Source of the DNA: Elusimicrobiota bacterium | GTDB lineage: Bacteria; Elusimicrobiota; Elusimicrobia; Elusimicrobiales; UBA9959 | Direction of reading: 5' to 3' | Length of the DNA stretch: 64,000 bases | Assembly: GCA_037137395.1 (NCBI GenBank) | Contig: JBAXKK010000001.1 | Coordinates: 29,904 to 93,903, forward strand | Shown here: in pieces, positions 7,764-62,255 of the stretch | Numbering within the stretch: position 1 is the first letter of the stretch | Layout of the letters: each line of letters starts with the position of its first letter | Position numbers and translations under genes: made by a program | Notes under the pieces: generated by a model | Seen by the model: only the letters and a program-made list of their open reading frames with translations | The model's database searches: none | Told to the model about the DNA's origin: nothing

Positions 7764-7879
7764 GCTATAAGGCCGTAAGCCATAAGCAGAAAGACAGCGG
7801 TCAAAGAAGCTATACGTTCAGAGATAGCGCGACAGAGTATCTGATTTGAGGTTTCTGCGTATGGCATAACGCATATGGC
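7764..7879. repeat. Heptamer-periodic inverted-arm element (GCCATAA / TTATGGC type)
   Basis: Left gctataa-ggccgtaa-gccataa-gcagaaa (7764-7792); right tttctgc-gtatggc-ataacgc-atatggc (7852-7879). Confidence 0.65.
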
Positions 7880-7907
7880 GAGTGGCAAAAATGCCCGGCA
7901 TTTTTTT

Positions 7908-8906
7908 ATGAAAACCAAATTATCCATCATCGGCGGCCTGGTAATCAGCGCGGCATTACTTTATTTTGCCTTCAGGAATATTAATTTCAGCAAGCTGGCT
8001 GAAATATATTCGCGCGTCAATCCTCTGATCATAATACCGGCCTTTTTTGTTGTGCTGTTGGAGATGTCCCTTAGGGGGCTGAGGTGGAAACTTCTGCTTG
8101 ACCCGGCCAGGCCCGTGCGGTTCTGGGACGCGTTTCGGCTGGAAGCCGCGGGATTGGCTTTAAGCAATGTTCTGCCGCTGCGTCTGGGCGAAATAGTCCG
8201 CGGCACTTTCGGCGCCGGGCTTTTCGGTATCCCGGTAGTTACGGTTTTCGCCACGATCCTTGTTGAGCGCGCGCTGGATACCATCGTTCTGGTCATCCTC
8301 TTCGTGCTGGCGGCCAGATTAGGCGGCATTACCGGGGGTTTCATCAGCTACGGTGGCTATTTCTGGGTCCTGCTCGGGGGGCTTCTGGCCGGCCTGCTGA
8401 CACTGGTGTTTATAGATGAAATCATGACCCACCGGTTCTTTTCCGGATTTTTCAATAAATTTCCGCGCGTAACCAAAGGGCTGGGGCATCTGGCCCTGGG
8501 GGTCAGAGCCTTCCATTCCTTTAAGACCGCGGCCGCCGTGGTCGCGCTGGCGGCCGGGCAGTGGATGCTTGACGCGCTGAACTTCTACCTGGTGGCCCGC
8601 GCCTTCGGCATAAGCGACATAGTAAATGGTTTCAGGTGTGTGATCCTGCTTTTCAGCTCCGCGGTTGCGGTATCCATCCCCGGCATGCCGGGGTATTTCG
8701 GCAATTTTGAATTTGCCATCGCCAAAGTGGCCGGTTCCTGGGGAGTGAACCGGGAAGTGGCTTTCGCGTACGCCACCTTTGTGCATGTGCTTGGGTATAT
8801 TTTTGTCACCGTCGCCGGCATGATATTCGTTTACCAGATGGGCCAGTCGCTCGGCAAGGTGTGGGCGCAATTTTCGGGGAAAAAGATTGACGGGATTAAG
8901 GGTTAA
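7908..8906 (+). CDS. Lysylphosphatidylglycerol-synthase-TM / flippase-like (UPF0104) membrane protein
   Basis: LRGLRWKLLL, NVLPLRLGEIVR, ERALD and PGMPGYFGNFE motifs; multiple TM segments. Confidence 0.88.
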   Translation: MKTKLSIIGGLVISAALLYFAFRNINFSKLAEIYSRVNPLIIIPAFFVVLLEMSLRGLRWKLLLDPARPVRFWDAFRLEAAGLALSNVLPLRLGEIVRGTFGAGLFGIPVVTVFATILVERALDTIVLVILFVLAARLGGITGGFISYGGYFWVLLGGLLAGLLTLVFIDEIMTHRFFSGFFNKFPRVTKGLGHLALGVRAFHSFKTAAAVVALAAGQWMLDALNFYLVARAFGISDIVNGFRCVILLFSSAVAVSIPGMPGYFGNFEFAIAKVAGSWGVNREVAFAYATFVHVLGYIFVTVAGMIFVYQMGQSLGKVWAQFSGKKIDGIKG

Positions 8907-8938
8907 GGATCTATGCTCAGGGCTGACCCTACCGACTG

Positions 8939-10102
8939 TTGATTATGCTAGAGATAAAATCCGTTCTGATGCTGATACAGAGCTTTTCACCGGCCATCGG
9001 GGGCGCGGAAAAACAGGCGCTTGAATTATCGCGCTCGCTGGTTTCAAGGGGGATCCGGGTGACGGTTATTACCCGGCGTGTGGGAGATACCGCGGCTGAA
9101 GAAATGATGGGCGGCGTGCGAGTTGTAAGGTTGAAGGTTTTGGGTTCGGGATTTATGGACACCTGCTCTTTTATGGCCGGAAGTTTTTTTTATCTTCTAA
9201 AACATGCCGCGCAATACGATGTTGTGCATGTTCATATAGCCTCATCTCACACCGTAGCCGCGCTGCTGGCCGGGTGGTTTACCGGCAAAAAAACGCTGGT
9301 GAAACTTGCCGATGGGAAAGAACAAAATGAAATAACGCTGTCAAGAAAAAATATTCTGGGCCGCATGAAACTTAAATTTTTCCAGTTCTCCAAGCCGCGG
9401 CTTATGGTGCTGAACGGCGAAGTTTTCGACTGGCTGAGCGGAATGGAGGAGTTCAGAGGGCTGCGTCTGATCCGGTTCCGTAACGGGGTGAATACGCTTA
9501 AATACGCGCCGGTGTTGTATCAGGCAAAAATAAACGCCAAGACCGTGCTTGGCTTTGATAACGCTCCAATTTTCCTATTTGTGGGCCGGCTTGATCCTAA
9601 GAAAAGAATAAAGGAATTTGTTGAACTCTGGGCTGAGATATTTTCAGAAGCAATGCTGAAACCAAAAATACGCCTTGTGATAGTCGGGACCGGCCCGGAA
9701 GAAGGGCAGATACGAGATGCCGTCTCAAGCCTGGGGCTTAAAGAGAGCGTGACGCTGACGGGCGTGCAGCATGATTTGCTGCCGTATTACAGCGCCGCCG
9801 ACGTTTTTATCCTGCCGTCTATAGCGGAGGGGCTCTCTAATTCCATGCTGGAGGCGATGTCTTGCGGCCTGGCCATTATGGCTAGCCGGGTGGGCGGGGC
9901 CAGAGAAGCGGTTATAGAGGGAGAGAACGGATGTCTTTTTGATCCATTGAACCGTGGTGAGATAAAAGAGTGTTTGAGAAAATATATCGTCGACAGCAAT
10001 CTGGCGGTAAGAATGGGTGAAAAATCGCGTGAAATAGCCGTGAATACCTATTCCATGGCAAAAGTCACGGATGAGCTGATAGAGATATATAAAAGGCGCT
10101 AG
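8939..10102 (+). CDS. GT4 family glycosyltransferase
   Basis: GGAEKQ, FVGRL, DVFILPSIAEGLSNSMLEAMSCG. Confidence 0.93.
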   Translation: MIMLEIKSVLMLIQSFSPAIGGAEKQALELSRSLVSRGIRVTVITRRVGDTAAEEMMGGVRVVRLKVLGSGFMDTCSFMAGSFFYLLKHAAQYDVVHVHIASSHTVAALLAGWFTGKKTLVKLADGKEQNEITLSRKNILGRMKLKFFQFSKPRLMVLNGEVFDWLSGMEEFRGLRLIRFRNGVNTLKYAPVLYQAKINAKTVLGFDNAPIFLFVGRLDPKKRIKEFVELWAEIFSEAMLKPKIRLVIVGTGPEEGQIRDAVSSLGLKESVTLTGVQHDLLPYYSAADVFILPSIAEGLSNSMLEAMSCGLAIMASRVGGAREAVIEGENGCLFDPLNRGEIKECLRKYIVDSNLAVRMGEKSREIAVNTYSMAKVTDELIEIYKRR

Positions 10103-10169
10103 ACGCAAAGCAGTCTAGAGGCAAAGCACGTTAGCTTATGGGTTTTGCATCTAAACTGCTTTAGCGCTA
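10100..10169. repeat. 28-bp imperfect inverted repeat with a 16-nt internal direct repeat
   Basis: tagacgcaaagcagtctagaggcaaagc (10100-10127) versus gttttgcatctaaactgctttagcgcta (10142-10169). Confidence 0.7.
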
Positions 10170-10197
10170 CACTGGCTGATAAAAGGAAGTTGCTTAT

Positions 10198-12102
10198 ATG
10201 TGCGGAATCTGCGGAAAATATAATTACGCCGGCACTGAGCCCGTCACAAAGGAAGAGCTCAGAAAAATGAACGATCTTCTGGAGCACCGGGGGCCGGACG
10301 ACGAAGGCTTTCACTCCGAAGGCAATATCGGACTGGCCATGCGCCGGCTTTCCATTATAGACCTTGCCACGGGGCATCAGCCCATCTCCAACGAGGACGG
10401 TTCCATCTGGATAGTTTTCAACGGCGAAATCTATAATTTTCAGGAGCTGCACGAGCGGCTTATCCTCAAAGGGCATGTCTTCAAAACAAAGTCCGACACC
10501 GAGACCATTATCCATCTTTATGAGGAGATGGGGACAGATTTCGTCAAAGAGCTCCGGGGGATGTTCGCCATCGCGATCTGGGACAGCCGGAAAAAAAGGT
10601 TGGTGCTGACCCGGGACAGAGTGGGCAAGAAACCTCTTTTTTATTCCATGAACGGAACATTTCTCGCTTTCGCCTCGGAATTAAACGCGCTCCTGGCGGT
10701 CAAAGGCGTTTCCCGCGACATAGATCTGCGCGCCGTGGACGCCTACCTCACGCTCCAGTACATCCCAAGCCCGCTCAGCATCTTTAAAAGCGTGAAAAAA
10801 CTTGAGCCGGCGTCTATCCTGACGCTGGAGAACGGGAAAGTTACGATTGAAAGATATTGGGACCTGCCGCTCGGCGCCAATAAGCTGGATCTGCCGCTGG
10901 ATGAAGTAAAGGAAAAGCTTTATGACGAACTTCTTGAGGCCACCAAAATCAGGATGATATCTGAGGTTCCGCTTGGCGCCTTTCTGTCTGGCGGGATAGA
11001 TTCTTCAGTCGTAGTAGCGCTGATGGCCAGGAGCTCCGACCAGCCGGTAAAGACTTTTTCCATAGGTTTCAAGGAAGCCGGGTTTTCTGAACTCGGTTAC
11101 GCCCGACAGGTGGCTGAGATGTACGGCACTAAACACACGGAATTTATAGTCGAAGCAAATATGGCGGATATGCTGGAGAAGCTGGTGCGGCATTACGGTG
11201 AACCATACGCAGACGCCAGCGCGCTGCCTTCTTATTTCGTTTCCCGCGAGACCAGAAAAGCTGTGACCGTGGCCCTGAACGGAGACGGGGGGGACGAGGC
11301 CTTCGGCGGCTATTTGCGCTATGTCGCGATGAAGCTGGATTCTTATTGCGGCGTAATGCCGGCAATCTTTAAAAAAGGGCTTCTGAATTTTACACGGATT
11401 TTCCCCAAAAAGGCGCCGTACGGCGTTTTCTGGCGCGCAGGGAAATTTATGAAGGCTTCCCTATATGAAAATCTGCCTCTCAGTTATTTATCCACAGTCT
11501 CATTTTTCGGGCCGGATGAAAAACAGGGCCTGTTCACCCCGGCTTTTGAAAATGCGCTGGGCAAGGATATCCGCTACGGTGAAAGGTATATAACCGAACT
11601 ATTCAAGGCGCCGGCCGGACAGGACCTCATGGGCAAACTATCCTATGTTGATTTCAGATCTTATCTGCCGGAATGCCTGATGACCAAGATGGATATTGCC
11701 TCCATGGCAAATTCCCTTGAGACGCGGTCCCCGTTCCTTGATCATAAGGTGGTCGAGTTCGCGTATCGCCTGCCAAGCCATCTGAAGCTCAAGGGGATTA
11801 ACGGAACCAAGTGGATATTAAAAGAAACCTTTAAAGATATGTTGCCCAGACAGATATATAAAAGGGGTAAGATGGGTTTTGGAATACCGCTGGGGCCCTG
11901 GTTTAGGGGAGAGTTAAAGGATTATTGGGCGGGAACATGCCTTTCCGCCAAGGCGCTGGGGCGTGGCTATTTTAACAGGGAACACCTTTTTATGTTGTGG
12001 GACGAACACCAGAGCGGCGCGTGCGACCACGGGTACAAACTCTGGGCGCTCCTGATGCTTGAATTATGGCATAAGGAATTCGCGGATGATTTTAAACTGT
12101 AA
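10198..12102 (+). CDS. asnB: Asparagine synthase (glutamine-hydrolysing) family amidotransferase, probably glycan-modifying
   Basis: N-terminal MCGICG, HRGPD, RRLSIID, FNGEIYN, FLSGGIDSS, GDGGDE; follows the GT4 gene. Confidence 0.95.
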   Translation: MCGICGKYNYAGTEPVTKEELRKMNDLLEHRGPDDEGFHSEGNIGLAMRRLSIIDLATGHQPISNEDGSIWIVFNGEIYNFQELHERLILKGHVFKTKSDTETIIHLYEEMGTDFVKELRGMFAIAIWDSRKKRLVLTRDRVGKKPLFYSMNGTFLAFASELNALLAVKGVSRDIDLRAVDAYLTLQYIPSPLSIFKSVKKLEPASILTLENGKVTIERYWDLPLGANKLDLPLDEVKEKLYDELLEATKIRMISEVPLGAFLSGGIDSSVVVALMARSSDQPVKTFSIGFKEAGFSELGYARQVAEMYGTKHTEFIVEANMADMLEKLVRHYGEPYADASALPSYFVSRETRKAVTVALNGDGGDEAFGGYLRYVAMKLDSYCGVMPAIFKKGLLNFTRIFPKKAPYGVFWRAGKFMKASLYENLPLSYLSTVSFFGPDEKQGLFTPAFENALGKDIRYGERYITELFKAPAGQDLMGKLSYVDFRSYLPECLMTKMDIASMANSLETRSPFLDHKVVEFAYRLPSHLKLKGINGTKWILKETFKDMLPRQIYKRGKMGFGIPLGPWFRGELKDYWAGTCLSAKALGRGYFNREHLFMLWDEHQSGACDHGYKLWALLMLELWHKEFADDFKL

Positions 12103-12189
12103 CCGTAAACACTAAATCGGAAAGCGTGAATAGCGTAAGAGTTTAGCAGGCCTTAAAACTATTGCCGATTTGCGATTGCCGATTCACGA
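12101..12189. repeat. Heptamer-periodic inverted-arm element (AATCGTG / CGATTCA type)
   Basis: Left aaccgta-aacacta-aatcgga-aagcgtg-aatagcg; right ctattgc-cgatttg-cgattgc-cgattca-cga (12159-12189). Confidence 0.6.
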
Positions 12190-12194
12190 CCCTT

Positions 12195-12650
12195 ATGAAA
12201 ATTGTCCTTATCAATCCCGATATACCGTGGAACGCGGGCAATATAGGCCGCACCTGCGTGGCCACAGGCACTGAGCTGGTTTTTGTGGGTAAAATGGGGT
12301 TTGAGATAAATTCAAAGGAAATACGGCGTTCAGGCCTGGATTACTGGCAGTACCTGAAATACTCCATTCACGCAGATTTTGAAAGTTTTTTAAGAACCCT
12401 TGGTGAAAATCCGCCGCTTATTTTCCTTTCCACTCGCGGCAAAGCGGCTTACTGGGATGCTCCGTACCGGGAGGATTCCTGCCTTATATTCGGCAGCGAG
12501 GGGGCCGGTCTTCCTGATTTGATGTATGAAAAGTACGCCGATAATCTTTACCGCATACCAATGTGGTCCGACCATGTACGCTCGCTAAATCTTTCCACTT
12601 CCGCCGGAGTTGTTCTCTACGAAGCTCTAAGACAGATAAAACGGTTATAG
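12195..12650 (+). CDS. trmL: tRNA (cytidine/uridine(34)-2'-O)-methyltransferase, SPOUT family
   Basis: PDIPWNAGNIGRTC, RRSGLDYW, FGSE, RSLNLSTS. Confidence 0.93.
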   Translation: MKIVLINPDIPWNAGNIGRTCVATGTELVFVGKMGFEINSKEIRRSGLDYWQYLKYSIHADFESFLRTLGENPPLIFLSTRGKAAYWDAPYREDSCLIFGSEGAGLPDLMYEKYADNLYRIPMWSDHVRSLNLSTSAGVVLYEALRQIKRL

Positions 12651-12698
12651 CGGCCGCCATCCAGTAGTTCGGGCAGAAGGTCTGCTCAGGACTGCTTT

Positions 12699-13206
12699 TT
12701 ATATGCCGGGTTTTCCGTTTAAAAACTCTTTATTTATAAGCCGAAGGGAGCGGTTGATGTCCGAATAAACCCTCGGTCTTTTATGAAAGAATTTACGCCT
12801 TAACAGATCCATCAGGCCGGATACTCCATAGTGCCTTACAACTGTGTAGTATTTGAGCAGGAATTTTCTGACTCTCCTGGGAAACACGTTATAAATGGCC
12901 GCGTAATAAAACCGCTTTGATCTCTTGCAGTTTAAAACTTTCAGAATACCATGCTTGCGCAGGTAAGCGCAAAGCAATTCAAGGACGATGTAATCCTTCC
13001 AGTGCAACACCTCCTCCTTCTCATAATCCGTGAAATTTAAATAATGGGAAATTTCATTGGCAGCGGCCTCGTGCAGGCTCTTGATATATTCTTCCTCCCC
13101 GGAAAGAGAAGATTTAATTATCCCCAATAACTCGTGAAATGGCGACAGGGGGATAATCCGTGGGAGCGCGGCCGCTGGGTAGATTAATAAGTAAAACTCT
13201 AATCAT
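12699..13206 (-). pseudogene. Probable internally deleted B12-binding radical SAM gene (N-terminal 30 codons fused out of frame to the C-terminal ~140 codons)
   Basis: ATG 13206 overlaps the end of the upstream GT and reads MIRVLLINLPSGRAPTDYPPVAISRV, typical of a cobalamin-binding domain start, then stops at 13114. The 12699-13127 ORF is in another frame and has no CxxxCxxC. Confidence 0.6.
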
Positions 13207-14431
13207 TTGATTTAAAAATCACTTTTTTTAAAAAAGCTTTCGTAGCCGGGAACTTGTCAACTACTTCCTCTACGAAAAACGTGTAAAGCTGGGAAAGGTC
13301 TATTGTTCGCAACTTCAAAATTATAAAGAACTCTTCCAGGGCGAATGCGAATTGAAGGCGTTTGAGAAATTTTATTATATATAACATCCTGTATGAAGCG
13401 AAATTTTTTTTAAAAATGGCGTCTGCGTGTATCCCGGGCCATCCCGGCATCTTCTTCTGCCGACGGGCCTCGATTTCGGCCAGGAGTTTCGGGATCGCAA
13501 TGCTGATGTCGTAATCTTTAATGGCTCTCCGGTAACCGCGGTCCGCTATGGCTTCTCTTTCGGCACTGTTTGAAAGATAAAATTGTATTTTATCTAATAG
13601 CTCCGCTTTTGTGGAAAACACGGCCATCTCTTCGCCTGGAAGAAACATTTGTTCGATGTTTGGAGCGTATTCGGATAGCGCAAAAGATCCGCATAGGGCC
13701 ACTTCGGTTATTCTGCCCTTCAATTGCTTGCTGTTTGCGGGCATGCCGGTAGTTCTGTATAGGTGGGTGAGCGCGGTCGCACCCGTAAAATTAAGATTGA
13801 TTTTGCTTTTGTTGAAAATTTCAACCATTTGCCCCAGCGTAACCTGACCTCCGGGAGCGCCAAAACCGAAAACCTGGACATTAATACCGTTTTTGCAAAG
13901 ATAGTCAACATACGCGGCCCGATCTTTTCTTCCAAGGAACCCGCCTACGAAAGAAACATCAATTGTTTTTTCCCGGCTGGCTAATTTTAAATACTTCGCG
14001 CGGTCATACGCGCTTAAAAACATTAAAGCGTCTCCGCCCATTTTTTTAAAGGCGTGCAATGTTTCAAAAGAATCGTAAATGATGAATAAATCCATGATCC
14101 CGGCGTAGTATTTATCTCTGGGCTCAAAGTAATAAACCGTGTCACCAGCCATCATCGCCGTGAAAACATGGGATCTCAGCTCAGCGAAAAAAGCAAGTGG
14201 GAAATGAAATGAAATAGGGTCGGCCGCGAAGATTATGGTTTTAATATCTTTTTCTCGGATAAAATTACTTATAAACTTCTGGGAGCCATAGTGGCCATGC
14301 TTTAGGTATAACACGCGGTAGTCAAGGAAAAGAGCGCCATTTTTTTCGAATTCGCGCTGATAGCCATTGCCGACGTCATTCGGCGTGTCGGAGTTCTGAT
14401 GAGATAAGAGCAGCGTTTTCCCAGGTGTCAT
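13199..14431 (-). CDS. CgeB/YkvP-type glycosyltransferase (Glyco_trans_1_2)
   Basis: IDVSFVG, SKINLNF, KGRITEVALCGSFALSEY, ELLDKIQFYL..REAIA. Confidence 0.85.
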   Translation of the reverse strand: MTPGKTLLLSHQNSDTPNDVGNGYQREFEKNGALFLDYRVLYLKHGHYGSQKFISNFIREKDIKTIIFAADPISFHFPLAFFAELRSHVFTAMMAGDTVYYFEPRDKYYAGIMDLFIIYDSFETLHAFKKMGGDALMFLSAYDRAKYLKLASREKTIDVSFVGGFLGRKDRAAYVDYLCKNGINVQVFGFGAPGGQVTLGQMVEIFNKSKINLNFTGATALTHLYRTTGMPANSKQLKGRITEVALCGSFALSEYAPNIEQMFLPGEEMAVFSTKAELLDKIQFYLSNSAEREAIADRGYRRAIKDYDISIAIPKLLAEIEARRQKKMPGWPGIHADAIFKKNFASYRMLYIIKFLKRLQFAFALEEFFIILKLRTIDLSQLYTFFVEEVVDKFPATKAFLKKVIFKSND

Positions 14432-14517
14432 AGAATTACCTTTTTTGCTTTGCCCTGCAAAACATGTTCCCGGCGGATAGTGAAAAAGCATTTAATTCAT
14501 TAGGCATGATGGTTGTG

Positions 14518-16089
14518 TTATGTGGCGTCGGCGGGATTTGCGCGGAATCTTGTTTGTATAAGCTGATAAATTTTTAAGAACTCCGGGAGTCTGAAAAAAG
14601 CGGATATGGCAAGGAAAACTATAATTCCCGCGAGAACGGATGAGGCAAGAGTTATCGTCTGGCTTAAGATGGTGTTATCAAAAATACTGTGCATGCCGGA
14701 ATATGTGAAAAAAACAGCCATGCCAGATACAATGGCAAAAGCCGTTATTTTGGATAAAGATCTTAGGATTGATACACCGTGAAGGTTTGATATCCTCCTT
14801 TTCAGAATAACGAAGTAGAGCACGGCTGCGATAAATGAGCTTGCGGCGGTTGAAAGCGCGATACCGCATGCCGGCGTGCTCATTAGTTTCATCAAAACAA
14901 AATTTAAAACTATGGTTACAATTAGGGAGGTGATTACCACTTTGATAATATTTTTCATGTCCTGGAATGCAAACATGAGCCTCAACATTATCGCGACTGC
15001 GTAGTTGGAGAAAAGCTGGAGGCAGCAGAACACGAATATTTTAGAGGTTAACTCCGTGGCGGCCGCATCAAAGGCGCCCCGCTGAAATATAAGCTGTATG
15101 GAAGGTTTTGCCAAAATCATCATTGTGACAGCCAAGGGGATGAAAATGAATCCGGACATCCTTATGCTCAGAGAAATGGTGGCCTTGATATCCTCTATCT
15201 TGTTTTCCGCGGCCTGAGCGGATAAGAAGGGGTATATTGAGGCAGCAATAGCGCCAGAAAATATTATCAAAGGAACCTGCACCAGTTTGTCCGCATATGC
15301 GAGCGCCGTTATGCTTCCGCCCGGGAGCCAAGATGCCATAAACCTATTGACCACTGCGTTAAGCCCCCCCGAAATCGTGATTATCAGGAAAATGCCCGCC
15401 AGATTTAATGACCTTTGTATTTCGGGGTGGGTCAGGTCTAAAACGGCGGAATGACGGAATCCGTACTTTTTCGGGAAAGGCGCAAGGAATAAGAATTGAA
15501 GGATGGTGCCGGCAAGCAGGCCCCAACCCAGCACAAATATCCCCAAGCGGGCGGTGAAAAAGAGCATGAAAAAAATAGTGCTCAACGTTATAAATATCCC
15601 CGAAATCGCCGGCCATAAAAAATGCTCAAACGCGTTGATTATGCCTGACAAAATGTTCACCGCGCCTGTGAAAATTATTCCGGCGCTTATTATTCTGAGC
15701 ATTTTCGCCGCGTTCACAGCGGTGTCCGCGTCCAACCCGGGAGAAAAAAGGTTAATAACATGGCCAGAAAAAGAGAAGGTGAGAATAGCTGCGACTAAGA
15801 GGATAAGAATAATAATGTTTGAAACCGTGCTTATGATATGGTTCGCCTCCTCCATGTTTTTTAGCTTGTATTTGACTAGAACCGGGATGAATATTATTGC
15901 GAAAGGGGACAGAAAAACACTGTTTATCAGGTTCGGCACGGTCAGCGCCGCATAGAAGGAGTCCATGGCTCGTGAGACGCCAAAATAACTGGCGCCGAGC
16001 ATTTCCTTCACCATGGATAAGGCGTGGCCGAGTATGCTTGCGGCGACAAGTATCGTGTAGGCTTTTGCAATTTTTAGATTTGTGCTCAT
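14518..16089 (-). CDS. murJ: MurJ/MviN-like MOP flippase
   Basis: ASYFGVSRAMDSFYAALTVPN, FIPV, GSITALAYADKLVQVP, LIFQRGAFD; ~14 TM segments. It may be a glycan-specific paralogue rather than the lipid II flippase. Confidence 0.85.
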   Translation of the reverse strand: MSTNLKIAKAYTILVAASILGHALSMVKEMLGASYFGVSRAMDSFYAALTVPNLINSVFLSPFAIIFIPVLVKYKLKNMEEANHIISTVSNIIILILLVAAILTFSFSGHVINLFSPGLDADTAVNAAKMLRIISAGIIFTGAVNILSGIINAFEHFLWPAISGIFITLSTIFFMLFFTARLGIFVLGWGLLAGTILQFLFLAPFPKKYGFRHSAVLDLTHPEIQRSLNLAGIFLIITISGGLNAVVNRFMASWLPGGSITALAYADKLVQVPLIIFSGAIAASIYPFLSAQAAENKIEDIKATISLSIRMSGFIFIPLAVTMMILAKPSIQLIFQRGAFDAAATELTSKIFVFCCLQLFSNYAVAIMLRLMFAFQDMKNIIKVVITSLIVTIVLNFVLMKLMSTPACGIALSTAASSFIAAVLYFVILKRRISNLHGVSILRSLSKITAFAIVSGMAVFFTYSGMHSIFDNTILSQTITLASSVLAGIIVFLAISAFFRLPEFLKIYQLIQTRFRANPADAT

Positions 16090-16093
16090 TTTG

Positions 16094-16164
16094 CAGGATT
16101 CAGTATGCAGGATTAAGGATTAAGCTGTGCCCCTTAAACCATTACTGCTTACCACTTACTACTT
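16094..16164. repeat. Hybrid heptamer element with two non-complementary arrays (CAGGATT x4 and ACCACTT x4)
   Basis: caggatt-cagtatg-caggatt-aaggatt (16094-16121); accatt-actgctt-accactt-actactt (16138-16164). Confidence 0.65.
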
Positions 16165-17370
16165 GGTCGTCAGCTTAACCAGGATGTTTCGAATGACCCT
16201 TCTCATTCCCCCTGTAAACCCTGATAAGAAAATCATCAACCCATGCTTAAATAGAAGATGGAATGTTTCAAAGGCGGCTTTAAGCTTGCGATTCTTAGCC
16301 ATAACGCACATTGAGAAGGTAAGGCTGTTTATCTCTCTGATCTTAAAATTTCTGCTGAGATATATTTTATCCGCTTTGGCATTTGCTCCGCCCGCGTTTG
16401 AGAGACAGCACGCCATATTTTCCAACATCCTTGGTATATAAATTTCCTCGCGGTAGTTTTTGACTGCGTACTCATGCGCGGCCAAAGCCAGGGCCTCTCT
16501 TTTTTCAGGGTTGGCGAGATAAAATCTCACCTTTTCAAGGAGTTCCGCTTTATCGCGGAAAAAATCCATCTCTTCTCCAAGCTTGAACACTGTCTCCAGA
16601 GCGGGAGAATATTCTGAAAGGCAGAACGAACCTGTTAGGGCTATTTCCCTCGGTCTGCCGGTGTTCTGGCGCACTCTGTTTAATAGCGGTTCATCCGCAT
16701 TTCTCCACTCTAAGTCCCCGAGTCGGCTGAAATTAAGATTAATCCTGCTTCTGCAGAAATATTCCGATATTTTTTCAACAGGAAGATAGCCGTTACTTGA
16801 TCCCTGCCCGTAAACCGTCACAGCTACCCCGGCATTCCTGAGGAATTCAACATATTCCCGCCTGCCGCGCTTGCTCATATCGCCGATAAAACAGACATCT
16901 ATGTCTTTGTTAATTTTAACGGGGAAGTATTTGTTGCTGGCGGTTAAATCCTGGCACACCAAGGCCTGTATCTCCAGCCTTTTGTATGCGAATGAGGCAA
17001 AATAATCCGCGGTTATGACTGCGTCCGCAGTCTGCGCATAATACCTGTTGTAGCTCTCAAAGTAGGTCGGGTCGTCCGCGAACCAGAAAACCGTTGTTAG
17101 TTTTTTTCGCAGGGAACTGTAAAAATCAACGGAAAGCTGGTAATCGCTGGCAAAAGGGCAGCATAGTGTGATGTCTATTTTTTTTTCGGTTATGATGTTG
17201 CGTATGCGCCGCTCGGTGTTCTTTATCCCTTCGGTGTGGCAGGTCTGGGCGTAATTTAACAGGTGTACTGATCTGAAATATCTCTTAAGGGGCGTGAACC
17301 GCATGGGAAAACCGCTGTTCTCCGCCGGATAAAGCGCCAGGATGTTTTTATCCTTAAAAAAGTCTGTCAT
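16159..17370 (-). CDS. CgeB/YkvP-type glycosyltransferase
   Basis: WFADD, DIDVCFIG, SRINLNF, GRPREIALTGSFCLSEY; paralogue of 13199-14431. Confidence 0.85.
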   Translation of the reverse strand: MTDFFKDKNILALYPAENSGFPMRFTPLKRYFRSVHLLNYAQTCHTEGIKNTERRIRNIITEKKIDITLCCPFASDYQLSVDFYSSLRKKLTTVFWFADDPTYFESYNRYYAQTADAVITADYFASFAYKRLEIQALVCQDLTASNKYFPVKINKDIDVCFIGDMSKRGRREYVEFLRNAGVAVTVYGQGSSNGYLPVEKISEYFCRSRINLNFSRLGDLEWRNADEPLLNRVRQNTGRPREIALTGSFCLSEYSPALETVFKLGEEMDFFRDKAELLEKVRFYLANPEKREALALAAHEYAVKNYREEIYIPRMLENMACCLSNAGGANAKADKIYLSRNFKIREINSLTFSMCVMAKNRKLKAAFETFHLLFKHGLMIFLSGFTGGMRRVIRNILVKLTTK

Positions 17371-25580: not shown

Positions 25581-26335
25581 TTATTTGATTTAAGAACCAG
25601 CAGAGTCTCAATGCCGTCCCGTGCGATAAGATACAGGCTCCAGAATATAATCGCGGAGCCGGTCAGGAATATGGCTTTAGCCGTGGCTGGAGTATGGGCT
25701 ATAAGGTGCGTTACCGTGAGCAGGTAAGTCCAATCGTGCTCTCCGCCGCCGACCAGCGGTAGGGCTTGGTTTATCGCGTCGCCAGCGTAAATGCTGATAT
25801 TTAACAGGCTTTCACCGAACCAAAATACGCAGAGCTGCCAGCCGGTACGGTTATCCTGACGCCATAGATGGACCGCGCAAACCGCGGGTATTATCAGTTG
25901 GAATATGGTTCCGCCCAGCATCATGATGAAGCGGCCGAAGAATCCCAGGAACAGATGTCCTGCTTCATGGAAAGCCAGGTTTATGAAATCCAGAAATGAA
26001 AAATAGTTCTCTTTTCTTATCCATTGAAGATAAAAAATGAACAGTCCGGCGACCAGCGCGAAACGGCCCCAGGATGCTAAGCATGAAGGACTTAAGATTC
26101 CGGATTCAAGATTGCGGATTGGGTGAGATTCCTTTTCAGTCTTGAATCCTTGATCTGGAATCTTAATTCCCGCATCTTGAATCTTGGATCCTGAATCTTG
26201 GCTCTCAAATCTTGAATCTTCAATCTTGGTTCTTAAATTTTTATAGCAGGCCCAGCAGAACTCACTTTCCTGGAAATTTGCTTCGCCGCAATAAGGGCAT
26301 TTTGGTTTTTCAACCCGGGCCGCTGTATCTGTCAT
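25577..26335 (-). CDS. Zinc-ribbon plus membrane HExxH (M50-like) protein carrying an in-frame heptamer-repeat insert
   Basis: CPYCG..N.....FCWAC; FHEAGH, GGT..Q and HDW motifs. Confidence 0.8.
   Translation of the reverse strand: MTDTAARVEKPKCPYCGEANFQESEFCWACYKNLRTKIEDSRFESQDSGSKIQDAGIKIPDQGFKTEKESHPIRNLESGILSPSCLASWGRFALVAGLFIFYLQWIRKENYFSFLDFINLAFHEAGHLFLGFFGRFIMMLGGTIFQLIIPAVCAVHLWRQDNRTGWQLCVFWFGESLLNISIYAGDAINQALPLVGGGEHDWTYLLTVTHLIAHTPATAKAIFLTGSAIIFWSLYLIARDGIETLLVLKSNK
26088..26227. repeat. Heptamer-periodic inverted-arm element (AAGATTC / GAATCTT) inside a CDS
   Basis: On the minus strand ~13 AAGATTC-like units (26227-26137) are followed by ~5 AATCTTG-like units (26130-26088). 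Confidence 0.85.
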
Positions 26336-29682: not shown

Positions 29683-32331
29683 ATGCTTAAAAGACTTGTT
29701 GAATCACTCATCGGCTCTAAAAGCGAACGCGATTTAAAGAAGATCCACCCCATCGTGGATCAGATAAACGCTTTTGAAGACGAGTTCTCAAAGCTCTCCG
29801 ACGGACAGCTCAGCGCTAAAACCACGGAATTCCGGGAGCGCCTCGCCAAGGGTGCAACGCTGGACGATTTGCTGCCGGAAGCTTTTGCCGTTGTTCGCGA
29901 ATCAGCCAAAAGGACGCTTAAGATGCGTCATTACGATGTGCAGATGGTGGGCGGCATAATCCTGCACAAGGGCAAGATCGCCGAGATGCGCACCGGAGAG
30001 GGAAAAACTCTGGTGGCAACCCTGGCCGCGTATCTTAACGCCCTTACGGGAAAGGGTGTACATGTTGTAACGGTTAACGATTATCTGGCCAAACGCGACC
30101 GCTTCTGGATAGGTCCCGTGCACGAGTTTCTGGGTCTCACAGTCGGATCCGTGCAGCACGACATGCGCAACGAAGAACGCCGGGCCATGTACAACTGCGA
30201 CATTACCTATGTCACTAATAACGAGATCGGCTTTGATTACCTGCGCGACAACATGGTTATGGATAAGTCCGAGCGCGTCATGCGCGAGCGCAACTACGCT
30301 ATCGTGGACGAAGTGGACTCCATTCTTGTGGACGAGGCCCGGACTCCGCTGATCATCTCCGGCCCGGCGGAAGAGTCCACCGACAAATATTACATTGTCA
30401 ATCGTGTCATTCCGCTTCTGAACGTTCGCTTTATAACCGAGAAAGAGGAGATTGACGCTAAGCGCGAGGGTACTGATCTCGGCGTGGGGTATGACGCCGT
30501 CATAGATGAGAAGAACCATTCCGTAATTCTAACCGAAGAGGGAGTGAAAAAGGCCGAAAAAATACTTAGTGTCGGTAATATTTACGATGATGTCGGCGCC
30601 GAATGGGTGCACCATTTGAATCAGGCACTGCGCGCCTACCACCTGTTCAAGAAAGACGTGGAATATGTGGTGAAAGAAGGTGAGATCATCATCGTGGATG
30701 AGTTCACCGGACGCTTGATGCCGGGCCGCCGCTGGTCGGACGGCCTTCACCAGGCCATAGAAGCCAAGGAAAACCTGCGCATAAAGGAAGAGAACCAGAC
30801 CCTGGCCACTATAACTTTCCAGAACTATTTCAAGCTGTACAACAAGCTTTCCGGCATGACCGGTACGGCTCTGACCGAAGCCGACGAGTTCTGGGAGATC
30901 TACAAGCTGGATGTGGTTGAGATACCGCCGAACCGTCCCATGGTGCGACAGGATTCTCCGGATCGGATATACCGGACCGAGCGCGAGAAGAACGCCGCCA
31001 TAGTCGCCGAGATAGAGGAGCGCTGGAAGAAGGGTCAGCCGATGCTTGTGGGCACCCGTTCCATAGATAAATCGGAGAAGCTGTCCACGATGCTGCGCCA
31101 CAAAGGCGTGCCGCATGAAGTTTTGAACGCCAAATACCATGAGATGGAGGCCCAGATCATCGCCCAGGCAGGCCGAAAGAACCAGGTGACAATCGCCACC
31201 AACATGGCGGGTCGCGGCACCGATATCATTTTAGGCGGCAACCCTCCGGATGAGGCTAACCACCAGTATGTCGCCTCAGTGGGCGGCCTGCATGTTATGG
31301 GCACCGAGCGCCACGAGTCGCGCCGTATAGATAACCAGCTGCGCGGCCGCTGCGCCAGGCAGGGAGACTCCGGTTCTTCCGTTTTTTATGTGTCGTTGGA
31401 GGACGAATTGATGCGCCTGTTCGGTTCGGACAGGATCTCCATGATCATGGAGAAGCTGGGCATGGAAGAAGGCGAGGTTATAGAGTCCGCTATGGTCAGC
31501 CGCCAGATAGAGGGCGCTCAGAAGCGGGTGGAGGGCATGAACTTTGACGCCCGCAAACAGCTTTTGGATTACGACAACGTGATGAATAAGCAGCGCATGG
31601 CCATCTATGAATTGCGCAATGTTATTCTGGACGGGGCCGACGTTACCGTTCGCGTGAAGAGCATGATTCAGGAAGGAGTAGAGGAGCAGATAGACTTTTG
31701 CGCGCCGGCCGATCAGTCCTCCCAGCTCTGGAACATGGAGAACCTGAATATTTATCTGGCCAAGACCTTCGGTTTCACGCTCGAATACACTAAAGATCAA
31801 CTGCATAGTATGCAGCAGGCTGAACTGAAGAAAGAGCTGCACGAAAGAGTGGAAAAGGGCTATGATAACCGCGTCCGTGAATTTGCGGAGCGCGGCGTGA
31901 ATTTTAACGATATGCAGCGCGTGCTGCTGCTCCAGATCATAGACCATATCTGGAAGAACCATCTCTACGATCTCGACCACCTTAAGAAGGGCGTGGGCCT
32001 GCGCGCTTACGGCCAGAAAGATCCGCTCATAGAATATCAGAAAGAATCCTATGCCATGTTCGAGAAAATGCTTGGGCGCGTCAGGGATGAGATGGTTGAA
32101 TATGTTTTCAGGATACAGCTTCCGCCCGTGGCTGCGGCAAAGCCTCATGTAACCCGGGAAGAGGGCGCTGAACCAGAAGCCGACGGTATGGTGAAAGCAG
32201 GCGCGGAGCAGGTTGGTAATTTGGCGACCAAGAAAAAACCGCAGGAAAAGTATGTCAATCTCAAAACAGGCAGAAACGACCCCTGCCCCTGCGGCTCCGG
32301 CAAAAAATACAAGAAATGTCACGGGGCGTAG
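29683..32331 (+). CDS. secA: Preprotein translocase ATPase SecA
   Basis: [38 protein letters not shown]-terminal [23 protein letters not shown]; AAGGA before ATG 29683. Confidence 0.99.
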
Positions 32332-32523
32332 GGGATTTAAGATTTAAGATTGTCAGATTTAAGATTCAAGATTTAGGATTCAGGATTGAAGATTTAGGGG
32401 TTAAGATTGGTGAGTTGGGGCTGCGATGGAGATGGGCGGTAAATAGAAAATGGGGTCTAAATCAAAATCTCAGCGATTCGGATTCCGTAATCTTAAATCT
32501 GGAATCTTGAATTTTGAATCCGC
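32332..32523. repeat. Heptamer-periodic inverted-arm element (AAGATTY / RAATCTT)
   Basis: 11 units at 32332-32409 directly after the secA stop; ~6 complementary units at 32482-32523. Confidence 0.88.
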
Positions 32524-36271: not shown

Positions 36272-36308
36272 CGGGCCGTCTGCCTTGGGCAGACGGCCCG
36301 CTTGTTTT
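36272..36308 (+). terminator. Rho-independent terminator
   Basis: 13-bp stem CGGGCCGTCTGCC/GGCAGACGGCCCG followed by CTTGTTTT. Confidence 0.85.
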
Positions 36309-37710: not shown

Positions 37711-37736
37711 GTACGGTAATAAGGTGAGTTTTTGAG

Positions 37737-37766
37737 AAGGGCCGGCGTAAATGCCGGCCCTTTTTT
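37737..37766 (+). terminator. Rho-independent terminator
   Basis: AAGGGCCGGC/GCCGGCCCTT stem followed by a T tract. Confidence 0.88.
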
Positions 37767-37822
37767 ATGTTTCGGTTTGTGTGAACGCCGGCTTTTAGTC
37801 TTAAGCGATAAGCATGAGCATA

Positions 37823-37964
37823 AAGGGAAAGTGGTTAGTGGACAGTGAATAGTGGCTAGTAGTTAATGGTTGGTGTCCGCCGCGCTGAGTAATGACCAAT
37901 AAATAGTGATTGATGGATGCGGATCATTTACCACTTATCACTAACCACTATCCACTAATCACTG
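37823..37964. repeat. Heptamer-periodic inverted-arm element (AGTGGTT / AACCACT type)
   Basis: Left agtggtt-agtggac-agtgaat-agtggct-agtagtt-aatggtt; right atcattt-accactt-atcacta-accacta-tccacta-atcactg. Confidence 0.88.
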
Positions 37965-37969
37965 GCGGG

Positions 37970-38899: not shown

Positions 38900-38920
38900 G
38901 ATATAACTCCTAATGATTTA

Positions 38921-39016
38921 TCGTAAAGCGTAAAGCGTGAAGCGTAAAGAGCGAGAACCAAACAGCAAATTTTTAAGAGCCGTGGCCCTTCACGCTTTAC
39001 GCTTTACTCTTTACGT
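38921..39016. repeat. Heptamer-periodic inverted-arm element (GCGTAAA / TTTACGC)
   Basis: 4 units at 38921-38948 and 4 complementary units at 38989-39016. Confidence 0.9.
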
Positions 39017-39019
39017 CCG

Positions 39020-44004: not shown

Positions 44005-44018
44005 AAAGGTTAAATGAT

Positions 44019-44091
44019 GCCATAGGCCTTAAGCCATAGGCCATAAGTTGCAAAGATCTCCTTAAAAAGCCTAAAGCCTAAAGCTTATGGC
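44019..44091. repeat. Heptamer-periodic inverted-arm element (GCCATAG / CTAAAGC type)
   Basis: gccatag-gccttaa-gccatag-gccataa (44019-44046); aagccta-aagccta-aagctta-tggc (44067-44091). Confidence 0.8.
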
Positions 44092-44096
44092 GTCTC

Positions 44097-45665
44097 TTAT
44101 TGCTTCGCAATAAGAGACTGGGAGGTCATATCCGCAGGCTGCGGCAGGCCCAGGATTTCCAGCACCGTGGGGGCCACATCTGAGAGTATGCCGTGAGGCC
44201 GCAGTTTCAGGCCGGCGGCGCCCTTCGCGACATATATAAACTCTACGGGATCGGTGGTGTGCGCGGTTTTAGCCATATTTATCTTGTAATCCCACATTTC
44301 TTCGGCGTTGCCGTGGTCGGAGGTGATGAGGGCAGTGTAGCCTTTCTTCAACGCCTCTTCCGTAAGCGCGCCGACGCTCGCGTCAACTATCTCTATGGCC
44401 TTTACGGCGGCTGTGAAGTTGCCGGTGTGCCCCACCATGTCGCCGTTGGCGAAGTTGACCAGTATAAAATCGTAATTCTGAGCGTCGATTTCTTTCGCCA
44501 CCCTTGCGGCCACCTCCGGGGCGTTCATTTCAGGATGCTCGCCGTAGCTGGACGGGTCAAAGGTGCCCGCTATCTCCACCTGATCCTCGCCTTTATAAGG
44601 CTCTATGCGTTTGCCGTTGAAAAAAGAAGTGACATGCTTAAACTTCTGCGTCTCGGCGATACGGAGCTGCTTTAAGCCGTGCTCGGCTATTACCTGGCCC
44701 AAAAGGTTGTTCATGCTGCCGCCCTCATCCATGGGTGGCAGAGCGCTGAATCTGAAGGCGTCATAATAGCGCGTAAGGCCGCAATAGACGATATTGAGTT
44801 TTTTCCAGCGCGAGCCGGAGTAATGGGGCTCCACAAAAGCCTTGGTGAGCTGTATCGCGCGGTCCTGGCGGAAGTTGGTGTGTATGACTGAGTCGCCTTC
44901 TCTCACGCCTTTATAATCCCCGATTATCGCAGGTGGTATGTACTCGTCTACGATCGGCTCGCCGTTTGGGTTTTTAAGTTCGCTGTAGGCGGTCTCAATG
45001 GCCTCCAGAGCGCTGTCAACGGGGGTGCCTTCGGCCCCGGTTATGGCGTTATAGGCCTGGTCAGTCAGAGCCCACTTTTCACCGCGGTCCATGGCGTAGT
45101 AGCGGCCCATTACGGTGGCGATCCTCGCTACTGGCACTTCTTTGATAACCTCCTCAAGCATCTTTAAAAAGCTGAGCGCGCTGCGGGGCGGCGTGTCGCG
45201 TCCATCGGCGAAGAAGTGGATGCGAATGCTTTTTACGCCGGCCTTGGCGGCATGGCGCATAATGGCGTACATATGGTCCTGATGGGCGTGGACTCCTTCA
45301 TCTTGGACCAGGCCCATGATATGGAGAGTGGACTTTTTGTTTACGGCGTTATCTATGGCGTTCTTGAGGGCCGGGGAATTGAAAAAAGTTCCGTCCTCTA
45401 TCATATCCATGATGCGTTTTAGCTCCTGTATGACTATTCTGCCGGCGCCCATATTGAGATGGCCGACTTCAGAGGAGCCCTGATAGCCTTTAGGGAGACC
45501 GACGGCCTCACCCGCCGGTTCAAGGACAGTATTCGGGTATTCTTTGAGGTAGCGGTCTATGTTGGGCTTTTTGGCGTTATAGACGGCGTTGAATTTATCT
45601 GGTTTGGCTATGCCCCACCCGTCGCGTATTATCAGCAGAACTTTTTTCTTATCCATTATTTTCAT
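44097..45665 (-). CDS. gpmI: 2,3-bisphosphoglycerate-independent phosphoglycerate mutase
   Basis: DGWG, GSSEVGH, DGRDTPP, GRYYAMDR, DMVGHTG, DHGNAE. Confidence 0.97.
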   Translation of the reverse strand: MKIMDKKKVLLIIRDGWGIAKPDKFNAVYNAKKPNIDRYLKEYPNTVLEPAGEAVGLPKGYQGSSEVGHLNMGAGRIVIQELKRIMDMIEDGTFFNSPALKNAIDNAVNKKSTLHIMGLVQDEGVHAHQDHMYAIMRHAAKAGVKSIRIHFFADGRDTPPRSALSFLKMLEEVIKEVPVARIATVMGRYYAMDRGEKWALTDQAYNAITGAEGTPVDSALEAIETAYSELKNPNGEPIVDEYIPPAIIGDYKGVREGDSVIHTNFRQDRAIQLTKAFVEPHYSGSRWKKLNIVYCGLTRYYDAFRFSALPPMDEGGSMNNLLGQVIAEHGLKQLRIAETQKFKHVTSFFNGKRIEPYKGEDQVEIAGTFDPSSYGEHPEMNAPEVAARVAKEIDAQNYDFILVNFANGDMVGHTGNFTAAVKAIEIVDASVGALTEEALKKGYTALITSDHGNAEEMWDYKINMAKTAHTTDPVEFIYVAKGAAGLKLRPHGILSDVAPTVLEILGLPQPADMTSQSLIAKQ

Positions 45666-59266: not shown

Positions 59267-59336
59267 TTGAATATTCCTTAATGGTTACGAGATTCAAATT
59301 CGCGGATATGCCGCCCTGTCTGCAGGATCGCCGCTT

Positions 59337-61022: not shown

Positions 61023-61058
61023 ATTATTTCAGGATGGATGGTATGTCCAAGCGTAACT

Positions 61059-61526
61059 CTATTTAACAAGAACGACCGAAACTTTTTTGTCGCCGAGCAT
61101 GGCCGTGTCGGGGTTGAGCGGGTCCAGCATCAGCTGGCCGTCTATGTTGTAAAGATATTGATATGTTCCGGGTGGCAGGGGTACAATGGTTCCCCAGATA
61201 TTGGTGTCGCGTTTTATAAGCCCGAGTGAGTCCACGCTCCACTTGTTGAAATCCCCGGCCAGCCTGACCGTTTTGGCGTTAGCTATTTTGACCGTGAATT
61301 TTACGAAGCGCAATTCCGGCTGGGGATTGTCCGCTCTCTGCGCCGAAGTCCGGGGGTGCATCGGCGGAAGCTGGGCGTTTCGCGATGGCCGAACGGCGGC
61401 CACGTTCCAGTTTCCCATAAAGTTGATGTATCTTGAAAGCGCTGTGTGGAATAGTACGCTGGGAACGCTGACAAAGATCAGCGCCGCGAGCGCGATAGCC
61501 GTCAGAACGGATTTTTTTTCCATCAT
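61059..61526 (-). CDS. Membrane-anchored CBM48/AMPK-beta-type glycogen-binding protein
   Basis: AKTVRLAGDFNKW...W...LPPGTYQYLYNIDG...DPLNP. Confidence 0.88.
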   Translation of the reverse strand: MMEKKSVLTAIALAALIFVSVPSVLFHTALSRYINFMGNWNVAAVRPSRNAQLPPMHPRTSAQRADNPQPELRFVKFTVKIANAKTVRLAGDFNKWSVDSLGLIKRDTNIWGTIVPLPPGTYQYLYNIDGQLMLDPLNPDTAMLGDKKVSVVLVK

Positions 61527-61528
61527 GT

Positions 61529-62173
61529 TTATATTTCCAGCCTCGCCCGTATCCTGGTTTTAACGCCAAGTTCTTTGGCCAGGGCTTCAAATTTTACAAT
61601 GTCCACGCCGGCGCCGTCTATGGCGGTCACAACCGTTTCCGGTATGACCCTGGCGGCGCCGCGCACGAATTCAAGCACGCTGTTAAAAGCTTTTTGCTCA
61701 TATTCCGGTTTAGGCCGCATCAGGGCCAGCCATTGGAGCGGGTCCGGAGTATTGAGGCTTACGTGCACCGCGTCCACCAGACCTTTAAGCCGGGGGACGA
61801 TATCTGTCCCGTTCACGAGTCCGCCCAGACCGTTGGTGTTCAGGCGCACGCGCAAACCCGCCGGTACAGGAGCCAGAGCGCCGGTTTTTACGGCTTTGGC
61901 TATGGCGATCAGCGTATCCAGCCGCATGGTCGGTTCACCATAACCGCAGAAAACGAGTTCATCAAAAGGCGTCAGTGTCCATTCCGTTTTTATCAGCGAT
62001 GTAACGGTTTTGGCGTCCGGTTCTGCGCCGCCCAGGTCCAGATTGCTACCCCGGTAGGCCATCTTCCATTTGCTCTTTATGCAGAAGACGCAAGCGGTCG
62101 GGCAGCAGTTTGTAAGGTTAACATAAAGTCCCGTTTTATAGCGATAAACTATTTCTGGTTTTGGAAATTCCAT
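61529..62173 (-). CDS. TatD-associated-type radical SAM protein
   Basis: LYVNLTNCCPTACVFC, ELVFCGYGEP, RLNTNG, VSLN. Confidence 0.88.
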   Translation of the reverse strand: MEFPKPEIVYRYKTGLYVNLTNCCPTACVFCIKSKWKMAYRGSNLDLGGAEPDAKTVTSLIKTEWTLTPFDELVFCGYGEPTMRLDTLIAIAKAVKTGALAPVPAGLRVRLNTNGLGGLVNGTDIVPRLKGLVDAVHVSLNTPDPLQWLALMRPKPEYEQKAFNSVLEFVRGAARVIPETVVTAIDGAGVDIVKFEALAKELGVKTRIRARLEI

Positions 62174-62185
62174 GTTTTTCTTACT

Positions 62186-62255
62186 TCGTAAAGCGGAGAA
62201 AAGTAAAACATTCAAGTCTGCTGTTCACTTTTTACTAACCGCTATTCGCTACGCG
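62186..62255. repeat. Degenerate heptamer element (CTATTCG type)
   Basis: ctgttca-cttttta-ctaaccg-ctattcg-ctacgcg (62221-62255) with a weak complementary arm at 62186-62210. Confidence 0.45.

Follow-up and report, generated by a model that had tools for sequence, protein, structure and literature searches.

We analyzed a 64,000-nucleotide stretch of DNA from an Elusimicrobiota bacterium, hereafter the window (G000:C1:29904-93903, G000 being the source genome), in which a reading made from the sequence alone had noted nine dispersed elements of one architecture. Each was described as a run of degenerate 7-nt units, a spacer and a run of reverse-complement units, with six of the nine beginning directly behind a stop codon. 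Tandem arrays were called with Tandem Repeats Finder (TRF), each stretch was folded with ViennaRNA against 100 dinucleotide shuffles, and neighboring genes were identified from Pfam matches (Table 1). These neighbors include asnB, a glycosyltransferase (GT) gene, murJ, a SpoU/TrmL-type methylase gene, secA, a uxs-like epimerase gene, ugd and gpmI. Five of the nine elements (26094, 32331, 37826, 38917 and 44019) fold far below their shuffles and are strong hairpins. The other four are indistinguishable from shuffles and, by eye, look like decayed copies of GCCATAA, CGTAAAG and AAGTGGT types, so the common architecture was upheld for the five and is decayed or marginal in the rest. TRF called arrays of period 7, 14 or 21 at seven of the nine places, but none at 7764 or 62186. 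The element at 16094 had been singled out as an exception in its pairing, correctly: one arm is built of AAGTGGT-type and the other of GGATTAA-type units, which leaves little complementarity. None of the nine loops, which range from about 17 to 120 nt, holds a gene; the window copies are thus gene-less relatives, rather than full members, of the elements described below.

Table 1. The nine elements of the window, in window coordinates; none is assigned a strand. z, folding energy relative to shuffles; dG, folding energy; SD, Shine–Dalgarno element.
Element	Position	TRF array	Folded stretch	Surroundings
Decayed GCCATAA-type hairpin	7763..7881		7755-7885, z –1.5	Behind M3 peptidase gene (stop ends 7746); fold pairs 7763-7785 with 7860-7881; T-rich stretch follows, immediately before next gene
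Decayed element	12103..12189	12161 (right arm, 12161-12184)	12095-12195, z –0.7	Between asnB stop and trmL-like SpoU methylase ATG at 12196
Marginal element	16094..16164	16109	16085-16170, z –0.6	Between GT gene (stop 16159-16161, in first unit) and murJ start (16089)
AAGATTC-type element	26094..26238	26094-26238	26085-26240, z –2.7	Internal to open frame 25577-26335 (minus strand)
Strong AAGATTT/AAGATTC-type hairpin	32331..32521	32333-32520	32328-32525, z –6.4 (dG –64.4)	Begins at secA stop; pyrimidine-rich arm falls in 5' extension of lnt frame
Strong AGTGGTT-type hairpin	37826..37963	37826-37963	37815-37970, z –5.1	6 nt behind uxs-like stop, in convergent spacer; adjoins canonical terminator 37734-37765
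Strong CGTAAAG-type hairpin	38917..39016	38922-39015	38915-39020, z –7.1	Between ugd stop and uxs SD/ATG
Strong GCCATAG/AAAGCCT-type hairpin	44019..44091	44019-44084	44010-44100, z –6.2	5 nt behind gpmI stop, upstream of DUF167 gene
Marginal decayed CGTAAAG-like inverted stretch	62186..62255		62175-62262, z –0.2	Divergent spacer; overlaps called start of radical-SAM gene

The placement of arms directly behind stop codons was confirmed for the six genes named in the sequence-only reading. The distance from stop to arm is 0 nt for asnB (stop ends 12102) and secA (stop ends 32331), 4 nt for ugd, 5 nt for gpmI and 6 nt for the uxs-like gene, while the GT stop lies within the first heptamer unit. 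The element at 26088 does not follow a stop; instead, it lies inside an open frame. Two start codons, of trmL and murJ, had been described as following an arm by 4–5 nt with no obvious SD. Both indeed lack an SD and begin a few nt behind the arm, although for trmL the pyrimidine-rich arm stops about 6 nt short of the ATG, with no purine-rich SD in the gap.

Period-7 arrays are abundant throughout the source genome (2.70 Mb in 174 contigs, 52% G+C). TRF returned 489 rows at period 7, 181 at period 14 and 56 at period 21, compared with 66 at period 6 and 153 at period 8, and a strict detector gave 236 arrays at period 7 versus 26 at period 6 and 22 at period 8. Period and symmetry, rather than sequence, had been proposed to be conserved. 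Units do vary, yet a limited set of families recurs (CGTAAAG, 50 TRF rows; GCCATAA, 30; AACCACT, 21; AGGCCAT, 21; AAGGATT, 17); CGTAAAG is the commonest unit in the genome, and several families are shared with other genera. Under lenient calling there are 555 arrays, and 152 of them are matched by a reverse complement no more than 300 nt away (score ≥24). The reversed and the complemented control gave 2 and 7, so the predicted excess of complementary partners is real. Pairing and merging yielded 143 hairpin elements, with a median arm of 23 nt and a median loop of 43 nt; these calls are lower bounds, and perhaps 5–8% are false pairs, judged from the reversed and complemented controls. Two inverted arms of about 7-nt units are thus seen in five window elements and in 143 genome-wide. 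When intergenic inverted repeats were sought blind to period, 203 were found; strong periodicity marked the arms of 57, with period 7 in 49 and period 8 in 6. A minority of arrays is built from 8-nt units: AGCGCGGC (12 rows), AAGACAGC (7) and AATCCTCT (7). Together with the period-8 (six) and period-9 (one) loci of the gene family TIGR02436 in other phyla (L075, L084, L098, L103, L144 and L146 among them), these show that period 7 is preferred but not absolute.

To relate elements to genes, we used a crude map of codon-scored long open reading frames (ORFs; 2182 genes, 87% coding), in which start codons are unreliable. On this map, co-directional spacers hold 98 of the 143 elements, convergent ones 12 and divergent ones 4; another 5 are at contig ends, and the midpoint of 24 falls within a gene call. 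Most of the last group straddle the edge of a longest-ORF call (15 at the 5' end, 3 at the 3' end), and only 6 rows are internal. Per kb of spacer, density is 0.49 in co-directional, 0.41 in convergent and 0.07 in divergent spacers; for spacers of at least 60 nt, a Fisher test of tandem versus divergent gives an odds ratio of 5.8 (p=2.5e-5). A median 76% of a 119.5-nt spacer is taken up by the element where the flanking genes are co-directional. Half of the 98 co-directional elements (49) lie within 8 nt of the stop codon or overlap it, whereas 35% would be expected, and at most 47% was reached in 1000 trials in which elements were slid within their own spacers; 61 are closer to the stop and 36 closer to the called start. 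The anticipated enrichment near stop codons is therefore real but modest once the small size of the spacers is allowed for. Behind the 3' arm, runs of four or more T are no more frequent than at random spacer positions (7.1% of 98 versus 7.0%). Hence the elements lack the G+C-rich stem followed by a U-tract that marks intrinsic terminators, as had been claimed for the window copies.

The two arms also differ in composition. Of the 143 elements, 119 begin with the arm that is richer in purines (mean purine content 62% versus 37%), and stop triplets are 2.5-fold more frequent in the first arm than in the second (0.093 versus 0.037 per nt). Because the element is an inverted repeat, this purine-first polarity holds on both strands and is thus a property of the element rather than of the direction of transcription.

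The sequence-only reading had suggested that some copies might enclose genes of the TIGR02436 or TIGR04256 families. One clear TIGR02436 gene is present in the source genome (G000:C76:12027-12347; 121 bits, and 126 bits to PF05635), and it sits exactly between four CGTAAAG-type and four CTTTACG-type units, flanked by co-directional genes. The nearest solved structure is 2GSC from Xanthomonas, and the match to Avd falls below the family cut-off. Empty and filled copies therefore share the CGTAAAG family within this genome, the window element at 38917 included, while the other families have no filled copy in the assembly. Counting the source genome and 30 relatives, TIGR02436 is present in 15 of 31 genomes: 12 of 18 in the same taxonomic family, 2 of 2 in a second and none of 10 in a third. 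Flanking inverted arms (score ≥24) were found at 25 of 30 TIGR02436 loci in relatives, compared with 3 of 30 in the control, with a different unit in nearly every copy. The gene is co-directional with its upstream neighbor in 23 of 28 loci of relatives by a crude ORF test.

This association extends across phyla. We scanned species genomes with a five-protein alignment and kept the best 80 of 592 relatives, 72 of which had enough flanking sequence. Of these 72 loci, 66 have inverted arms around the gene (control, 4 of 72), and 61 of the 66 lead with the purine-rich arm. A best period could be assigned at the 61 loci whose arms were of sufficient length: 7 at 54 of them, 8 at 6 and 9 at 1. Sources include Nitrospirota, Acidobacteriota, Bacteroidota, Xanthomonadales, Burkholderiales, deltaproteobacteria, Spirochaetes, Fibrobacter, Ignavibacteria, Atribacterota and Omnitrophota, among others. 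GxxExxY genes (TIGR04256 = PF13366, PD-(D/E)XK fold) were above cut-off in three relatives. At both loci with two flanks available the gene lies between inverted arms of tandem repeats, which are heptamers at one locus and units of about 10 nt at the other.

Arm pairs separated by larger distances were considered as cassettes and discarded. At 0.25–2.5 kb there are 27 pairs with a score of at least 28, versus 1 in the control, but the enclosed genes are ordinary: S8/L6/L18, NADH dehydrogenase, CorA, sucD, ExbD/TonB, RlmN, glycosyltransferases and some toxin-antitoxin-like genes. We read these pairs as neighboring elements of one unit family, not as enclosures of cargo. Heptamer arrays at G000:C3:4489-4517 and 6076-6100 (L016) lie in the spacers flanking S8-L6-L18, so even this conserved row of ribosomal genes carries them.

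The suggested comparison of orthologous junctions in relatives showed clear presence or absence, and replacement as well. The filled element is present at its junction in G000 and in G001, whereas in G004, G006 and G009 only about 10–20 nt separate the stop from the ATG. These bare junctions imply that the 431-nt filled element arrived as one unit. At the filled locus the upstream protein now ends within the first arm, and the first unit overlaps the ancestral stop region. At secA-lnt, which we compared in 17 relatives, the arms are of AAGATTC type in G000 and G002, of CGTAAAG in G007 and of four further units in G016, G010, G012 and G022. They are degenerate in G001 and G003, and the spacer is short and array-free in G004, G011 and G018. 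Variation within the genus is also evident at ugd-uxs. The CGTAAAG arms of G000 and G001 differ by one unit and in unit order, while G006 has a related unit, G002 AAGATTC, G003 a different insert of 381 nt and G005 no array. In G008, from another genus, the unit is GCCATAA. Other insertions were seen at two of these sites: an unrelated insert of roughly 1 kb at the filled-element junction of G011 (L194), encoding a repeat protein that is ankyrin-like by eye, and a 0.9-kb insert with an open frame at secA-lnt in G020 (L033).

Turnover is visible on a finer scale as well. Contigs from two other freshwater or lake runs have a 14-nt (two-unit) deletion in one arm of the element at 38917-39016, and in one run contig joints replace both this element and the secA-lnt element by other sequence. 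Three gene-less copies (G000:C84:9415-9571, C92:6843-6999 and C33:21033-21171) share a 140–158-nt element including the loop, at 84–92% identity; they lie in unrelated co-directional spacers, one of them inverted. Similarity between loops more generally was considered as proof of copy-and-paste and set aside: among 112 loops of at least 25 nt, 53 pairs matched, nearly all through short array fragments. Finally, arrays track the cargo gene. In samples of 19–80 kb per genome from 23 relatives, we found 2 strict arrays in 375 kb from the 13 relatives without TIGR02436 and 41 in 356 kb from the 10 relatives with it.

Architecture, polarity, location in operon spacers, linkage to cargo, insertion polymorphism and turnover are established by this analysis. 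They lead us to conclude that the window elements are probably gene-less copies of a hairpin-built DNA insertion element whose full form carries a PF05635/TIGR02436 gene. The suggestion that they are empty members of a cassette system thereby gains support, from the filled copy bearing the commonest unit family, the genes enclosed elsewhere and the polymorphic junctions. In this plan a loop and a reverse-complement array follow a purine-rich tandem-heptamer array. In the full form the loop holds a small gene for a four-helix-bundle protein related to the 23S rRNA intervening-sequence (IVS) protein and to Avd or, in some cases, a PF13366 GxxExxY gene. The elements prefer or tolerate transcribed spacers, where they lie behind a stop codon and ahead of the ribosome-binding site that follows. 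They may do little harm there, since stop triplets are frequent in the first arm and the SD of the next gene stays free, and such near-harmlessness could explain their distribution without a host function. Turnover is fast: whole elements are replaced or lost between close strains and some are copied to new sites, while arms probably gain and lose units by slippage, which a stem built of repeats should tolerate because any register pairs. On a polycistronic mRNA, a stem of 20–60 bp would be a likely substrate of RNase III (encoded in G000), by analogy with 23S IVSs, and its cleavage would uncouple the flanking cistrons. The cargo protein may take part in the spread or upkeep of the elements.

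Several observations weigh against this interpretation. No clear target-site duplication was seen at the filled insertion, the only one examined, where the evidence is at best ambiguous, and no transposase-like partner was found. Most loops are unrelated, with a single three-copy family, so whole elements do not mainly spread by simple copy-and-paste. There is one filled copy against at least 143 empty ones in G000, most unit families have no cognate gene, and remnants of cargo genes were not found in the loops (2 matches among 7 candidates). That two unrelated cargo families share one design argues against either protein specifying the arms. The co-occurrence of arrays with TIGR02436 rests on kin genomes and small samples, and three same-genus genomes that have the gene gave no array in the 20 kb sampled from each. 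Two specific routes of mobilization were tried and rejected. Four Y1 transposase genes (PF01797) occur in G000, none with a heptamer array beside it, and the single reverse-transcriptase (RT) gene belongs to a locus on C52 resembling a diversity-generating retroelement (DGR), with its own weak Avd match and no heptamer elements nearby. In this C52 locus (12174-15470, L002), the RT gene (PF00078, 72.6 bits) stands beside the weak Avd/TIGR02436 match, and a stretch repeated on both sides could represent template and variable repeats.

The same distribution might instead reflect selection by the host for intercistronic mRNA hairpins that protect the upstream 3' end, set processing sites, or bring a stop codon next to a start codon for coupled translation. 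Consistent with this idea are the strong bias to transcribed spacers, the depletion from divergent, promoter-bearing spacers, the somewhat greater proximity to stops than to starts, the trmL and murJ starts a few nt behind a second arm, and the recurrence of a hairpin of some family at the same junction in several genera. Yet junctions are bare in close relatives (secA-lnt in G004 and G011, ugd-uxs in G005), elements are replaced between strains about 95% identical, and both SD-less cases are the weakest hairpins. Moreover, arrays are nearly absent from the 13 sampled relatives that lack the cargo gene, despite the same operons. Selection for pairing in the sense RNA might leave an excess of G-U over A-C mismatches in the stems. 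None was seen (97 versus 98), although ordinary control hairpins were likewise unbiased (354 versus 333), which makes the test uninformative and without shown power. On balance, we regard selection for mRNA hairpins as unlikely to be the main explanation.

Still less probable, in our judgment, is a purely mutational origin, in which slippage favors 7-nt units and template switching at quasi-palindromes mirrors the array, with no mobile element or cargo protein. Arms do change by whole units (14 nt between strains, one unit between G000 and G001), the first unit overlaps the ancestral stop region at the filled locus, and an excess of heptanucleotide repeats in many prokaryotes, with polymerase slippage as the proposed cause, is cited in PMC4679880 (excerpt). 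However, mutation alone would not account for the same unit families at many unrelated loci and in different genera, the arrival of a 431-nt filled element as a single unit in a bare junction, or the loop shared by the three-copy family, and it offers no reason for the close association with two small gene families across phyla. A related proposal, that units are copied from the local stop-codon context, was hinted at by the filled locus and some secA-lnt junctions but failed at ugd-uxs; the statistics for such seeding are circular because arms overlap stops. We give very little credence to the view that the elements are unusual Rho-independent terminators without a U-tract, or G-quadruplex repeats like the GGGAATC repeats of Xanthomonas. 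They do form hairpins behind stop codons, and the 70–75 convergent heptamer pairs of Xanthomonas have been interpreted through G-quadruplex formation (PMC4692102, excerpt). But T-runs are not enriched after the second arm, canonical stem-plus-T-tract terminators are in use (for example at 36272-36300 and 37734-37765), the elements lie inside operons, including the S8-L6-L18 spacers, and the main units (CGTAAAG, GCCATAA, AACCACT and AAGATTC) lack G-tracts of three or more.

The elements resemble several known systems in part. Repetitive extragenic palindromes (REPs), alone or as bacterial interspersed mosaic elements (BIMEs) and paired REPINs with their REP-associated tyrosine transposases (RAYTs), and miniature transposable elements with inverted repeats (MITEs) are short, hairpin-forming, multi-copy, non-coding elements of transcribed spacers with rare protein-coding relatives. 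The present elements share all these features, but the Y1 transposase genes of G000 lack adjacent arrays, the arms are tandem repeats of varied sequence rather than a single conserved palindrome, and there is no clear target-site duplication. Tandem heptamers also define the short tandemly repeated repetitive (STRR) sequences in intergenic DNA of heterocystous cyanobacteria, and tandem heptamers are what the comparison with them covered. The IVS of Coxiella burnetii 23S rRNA, cited together with that of Leptospira, has an S23p ORF and terminal inverted repeats forming a 28-bp stem, is regarded as a selfish element, and is cut by RNase III in the stem in vitro (PMC4990558, excerpt). The filled copy in G000 is similar in having a long inverted-repeat stem and a small PF05635-family ORF in the loop. 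In contrast to an IVS, which is inserted in a 23S rRNA helix, the present elements sit in mRNA spacers between protein-coding genes (an Rfam scan of the window gave no rRNA or other family), have arms of tandem heptamers with purine-first polarity, and in the window are all gene-less.

Heptamer repeats in Xanthomonas (GGGAATC) and in Nostoc/Anabaena (GGGGA(C/T)T) have been read as G-quadruplex formers, and the convergent pairs of Xanthomonas can form stem-loops that are mostly conserved in position between two species and vary in length; the part of that paper considered here does not mention S23 or an intervening sequence (PMC4692102, excerpt). Like our elements these are intergenic tandem heptamers in inverted pairs, and in our cross-phyla scan five Xanthomonas TIGR02436 loci are flanked by the GGGAATC unit. 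Unlike them, many unit families without G-tracts coexist in G000. The TAACTGA repeats of marine Beggiatoaceae are abundant intergenic heptamers, with a unit containing stop triplets and an occurrence in scattered phyla, but they are direct repeats of one unit that immediately precede start codons, and a single set among 170 is inverted (PMC4679880, excerpt), whereas the G000 arrays are inverted pairs of many units behind stop codons.

It is conceivable, though we advance the idea only tentatively, that heptamer-armed hairpins constitute one pan-bacterial class of mobile element that its cargo, a four-helix bundle resembling Avd or a GxxExxY protein of the PD-(D/E)XK fold, helps to spread or maintain. 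A single mechanism would in that case account for the prokaryotic excess of 7-nt repeats, the cyanobacterial STRRs, the GGGAATC pairs of Xanthomonas and the ORF-bearing rRNA IVSs. The polarity, fixed so that the pyrimidine-rich strand runs 3'-outward at either end, would on this view record how the arms are synthesized.

To our knowledge, the large PF05635 family is known only from rRNA IVSs and for its relationship to Avd, a DGR protein. A tie between this family and 7-base repeats yields hypotheses that can be tested in tractable bacteria such as Xanthomonas. What connects the two is a set of empty copies that occupy spacers within operons, change from strain to strain and go along with the gene's presence, and this connection may help to explain why such repeats are so frequent. 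Among long simple repeats, tandem 7-base units are the most common in many bacteria, and no explanation for them is accepted, according to work cited in PMC4679880 (excerpt). Inverted heptamer pairs in Xanthomonas, direct heptamers in Beggiatoaceae and ORF-bearing IVSs have each been described separately; we found no paper that joins heptamer arms to PF05635 cargo, in a search with most subscription journals and database family notes outside its coverage, so a prior mention is possible.

The elements also matter for annotation and assembly, since they extend or interrupt reading frames and break assemblies. In the window, the 5' extension of lnt (32450-32555) adds 34 residues, partly encoded by the arm, before the LNT_N domain, which starts at ORF residue 35; in G002 the equivalent pyrimidine-rich arm is likewise in frame with lnt. 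The minus-strand frame 25577-26335 (252 codons) reads through the whole hairpin at 26094-26238, which lies between a Cys-rich N-terminal stretch (CPYC...CWAC) and a hydrophobic segment. This frame has no Pfam match and a low coding score; perhaps it adopted the element as a linker, or perhaps it is a mistaken gene call. In a relative (L052, G002:C11, about 1500-1900), a TIGR02436 frame reads through the pyrimidine-rich arm into a PQQ-like propeller gene, the arm encoding a Leu/Phe/Ser/Pro-rich stretch that resembles a signal peptide. Similar long open frames occur in G006, G008, G012 and G022. Lastly, the canonical terminators at 36272-36300 (usable from either strand) and 37734-37765 show that this organism uses ordinary intrinsic terminators alongside its heptamer hairpins.

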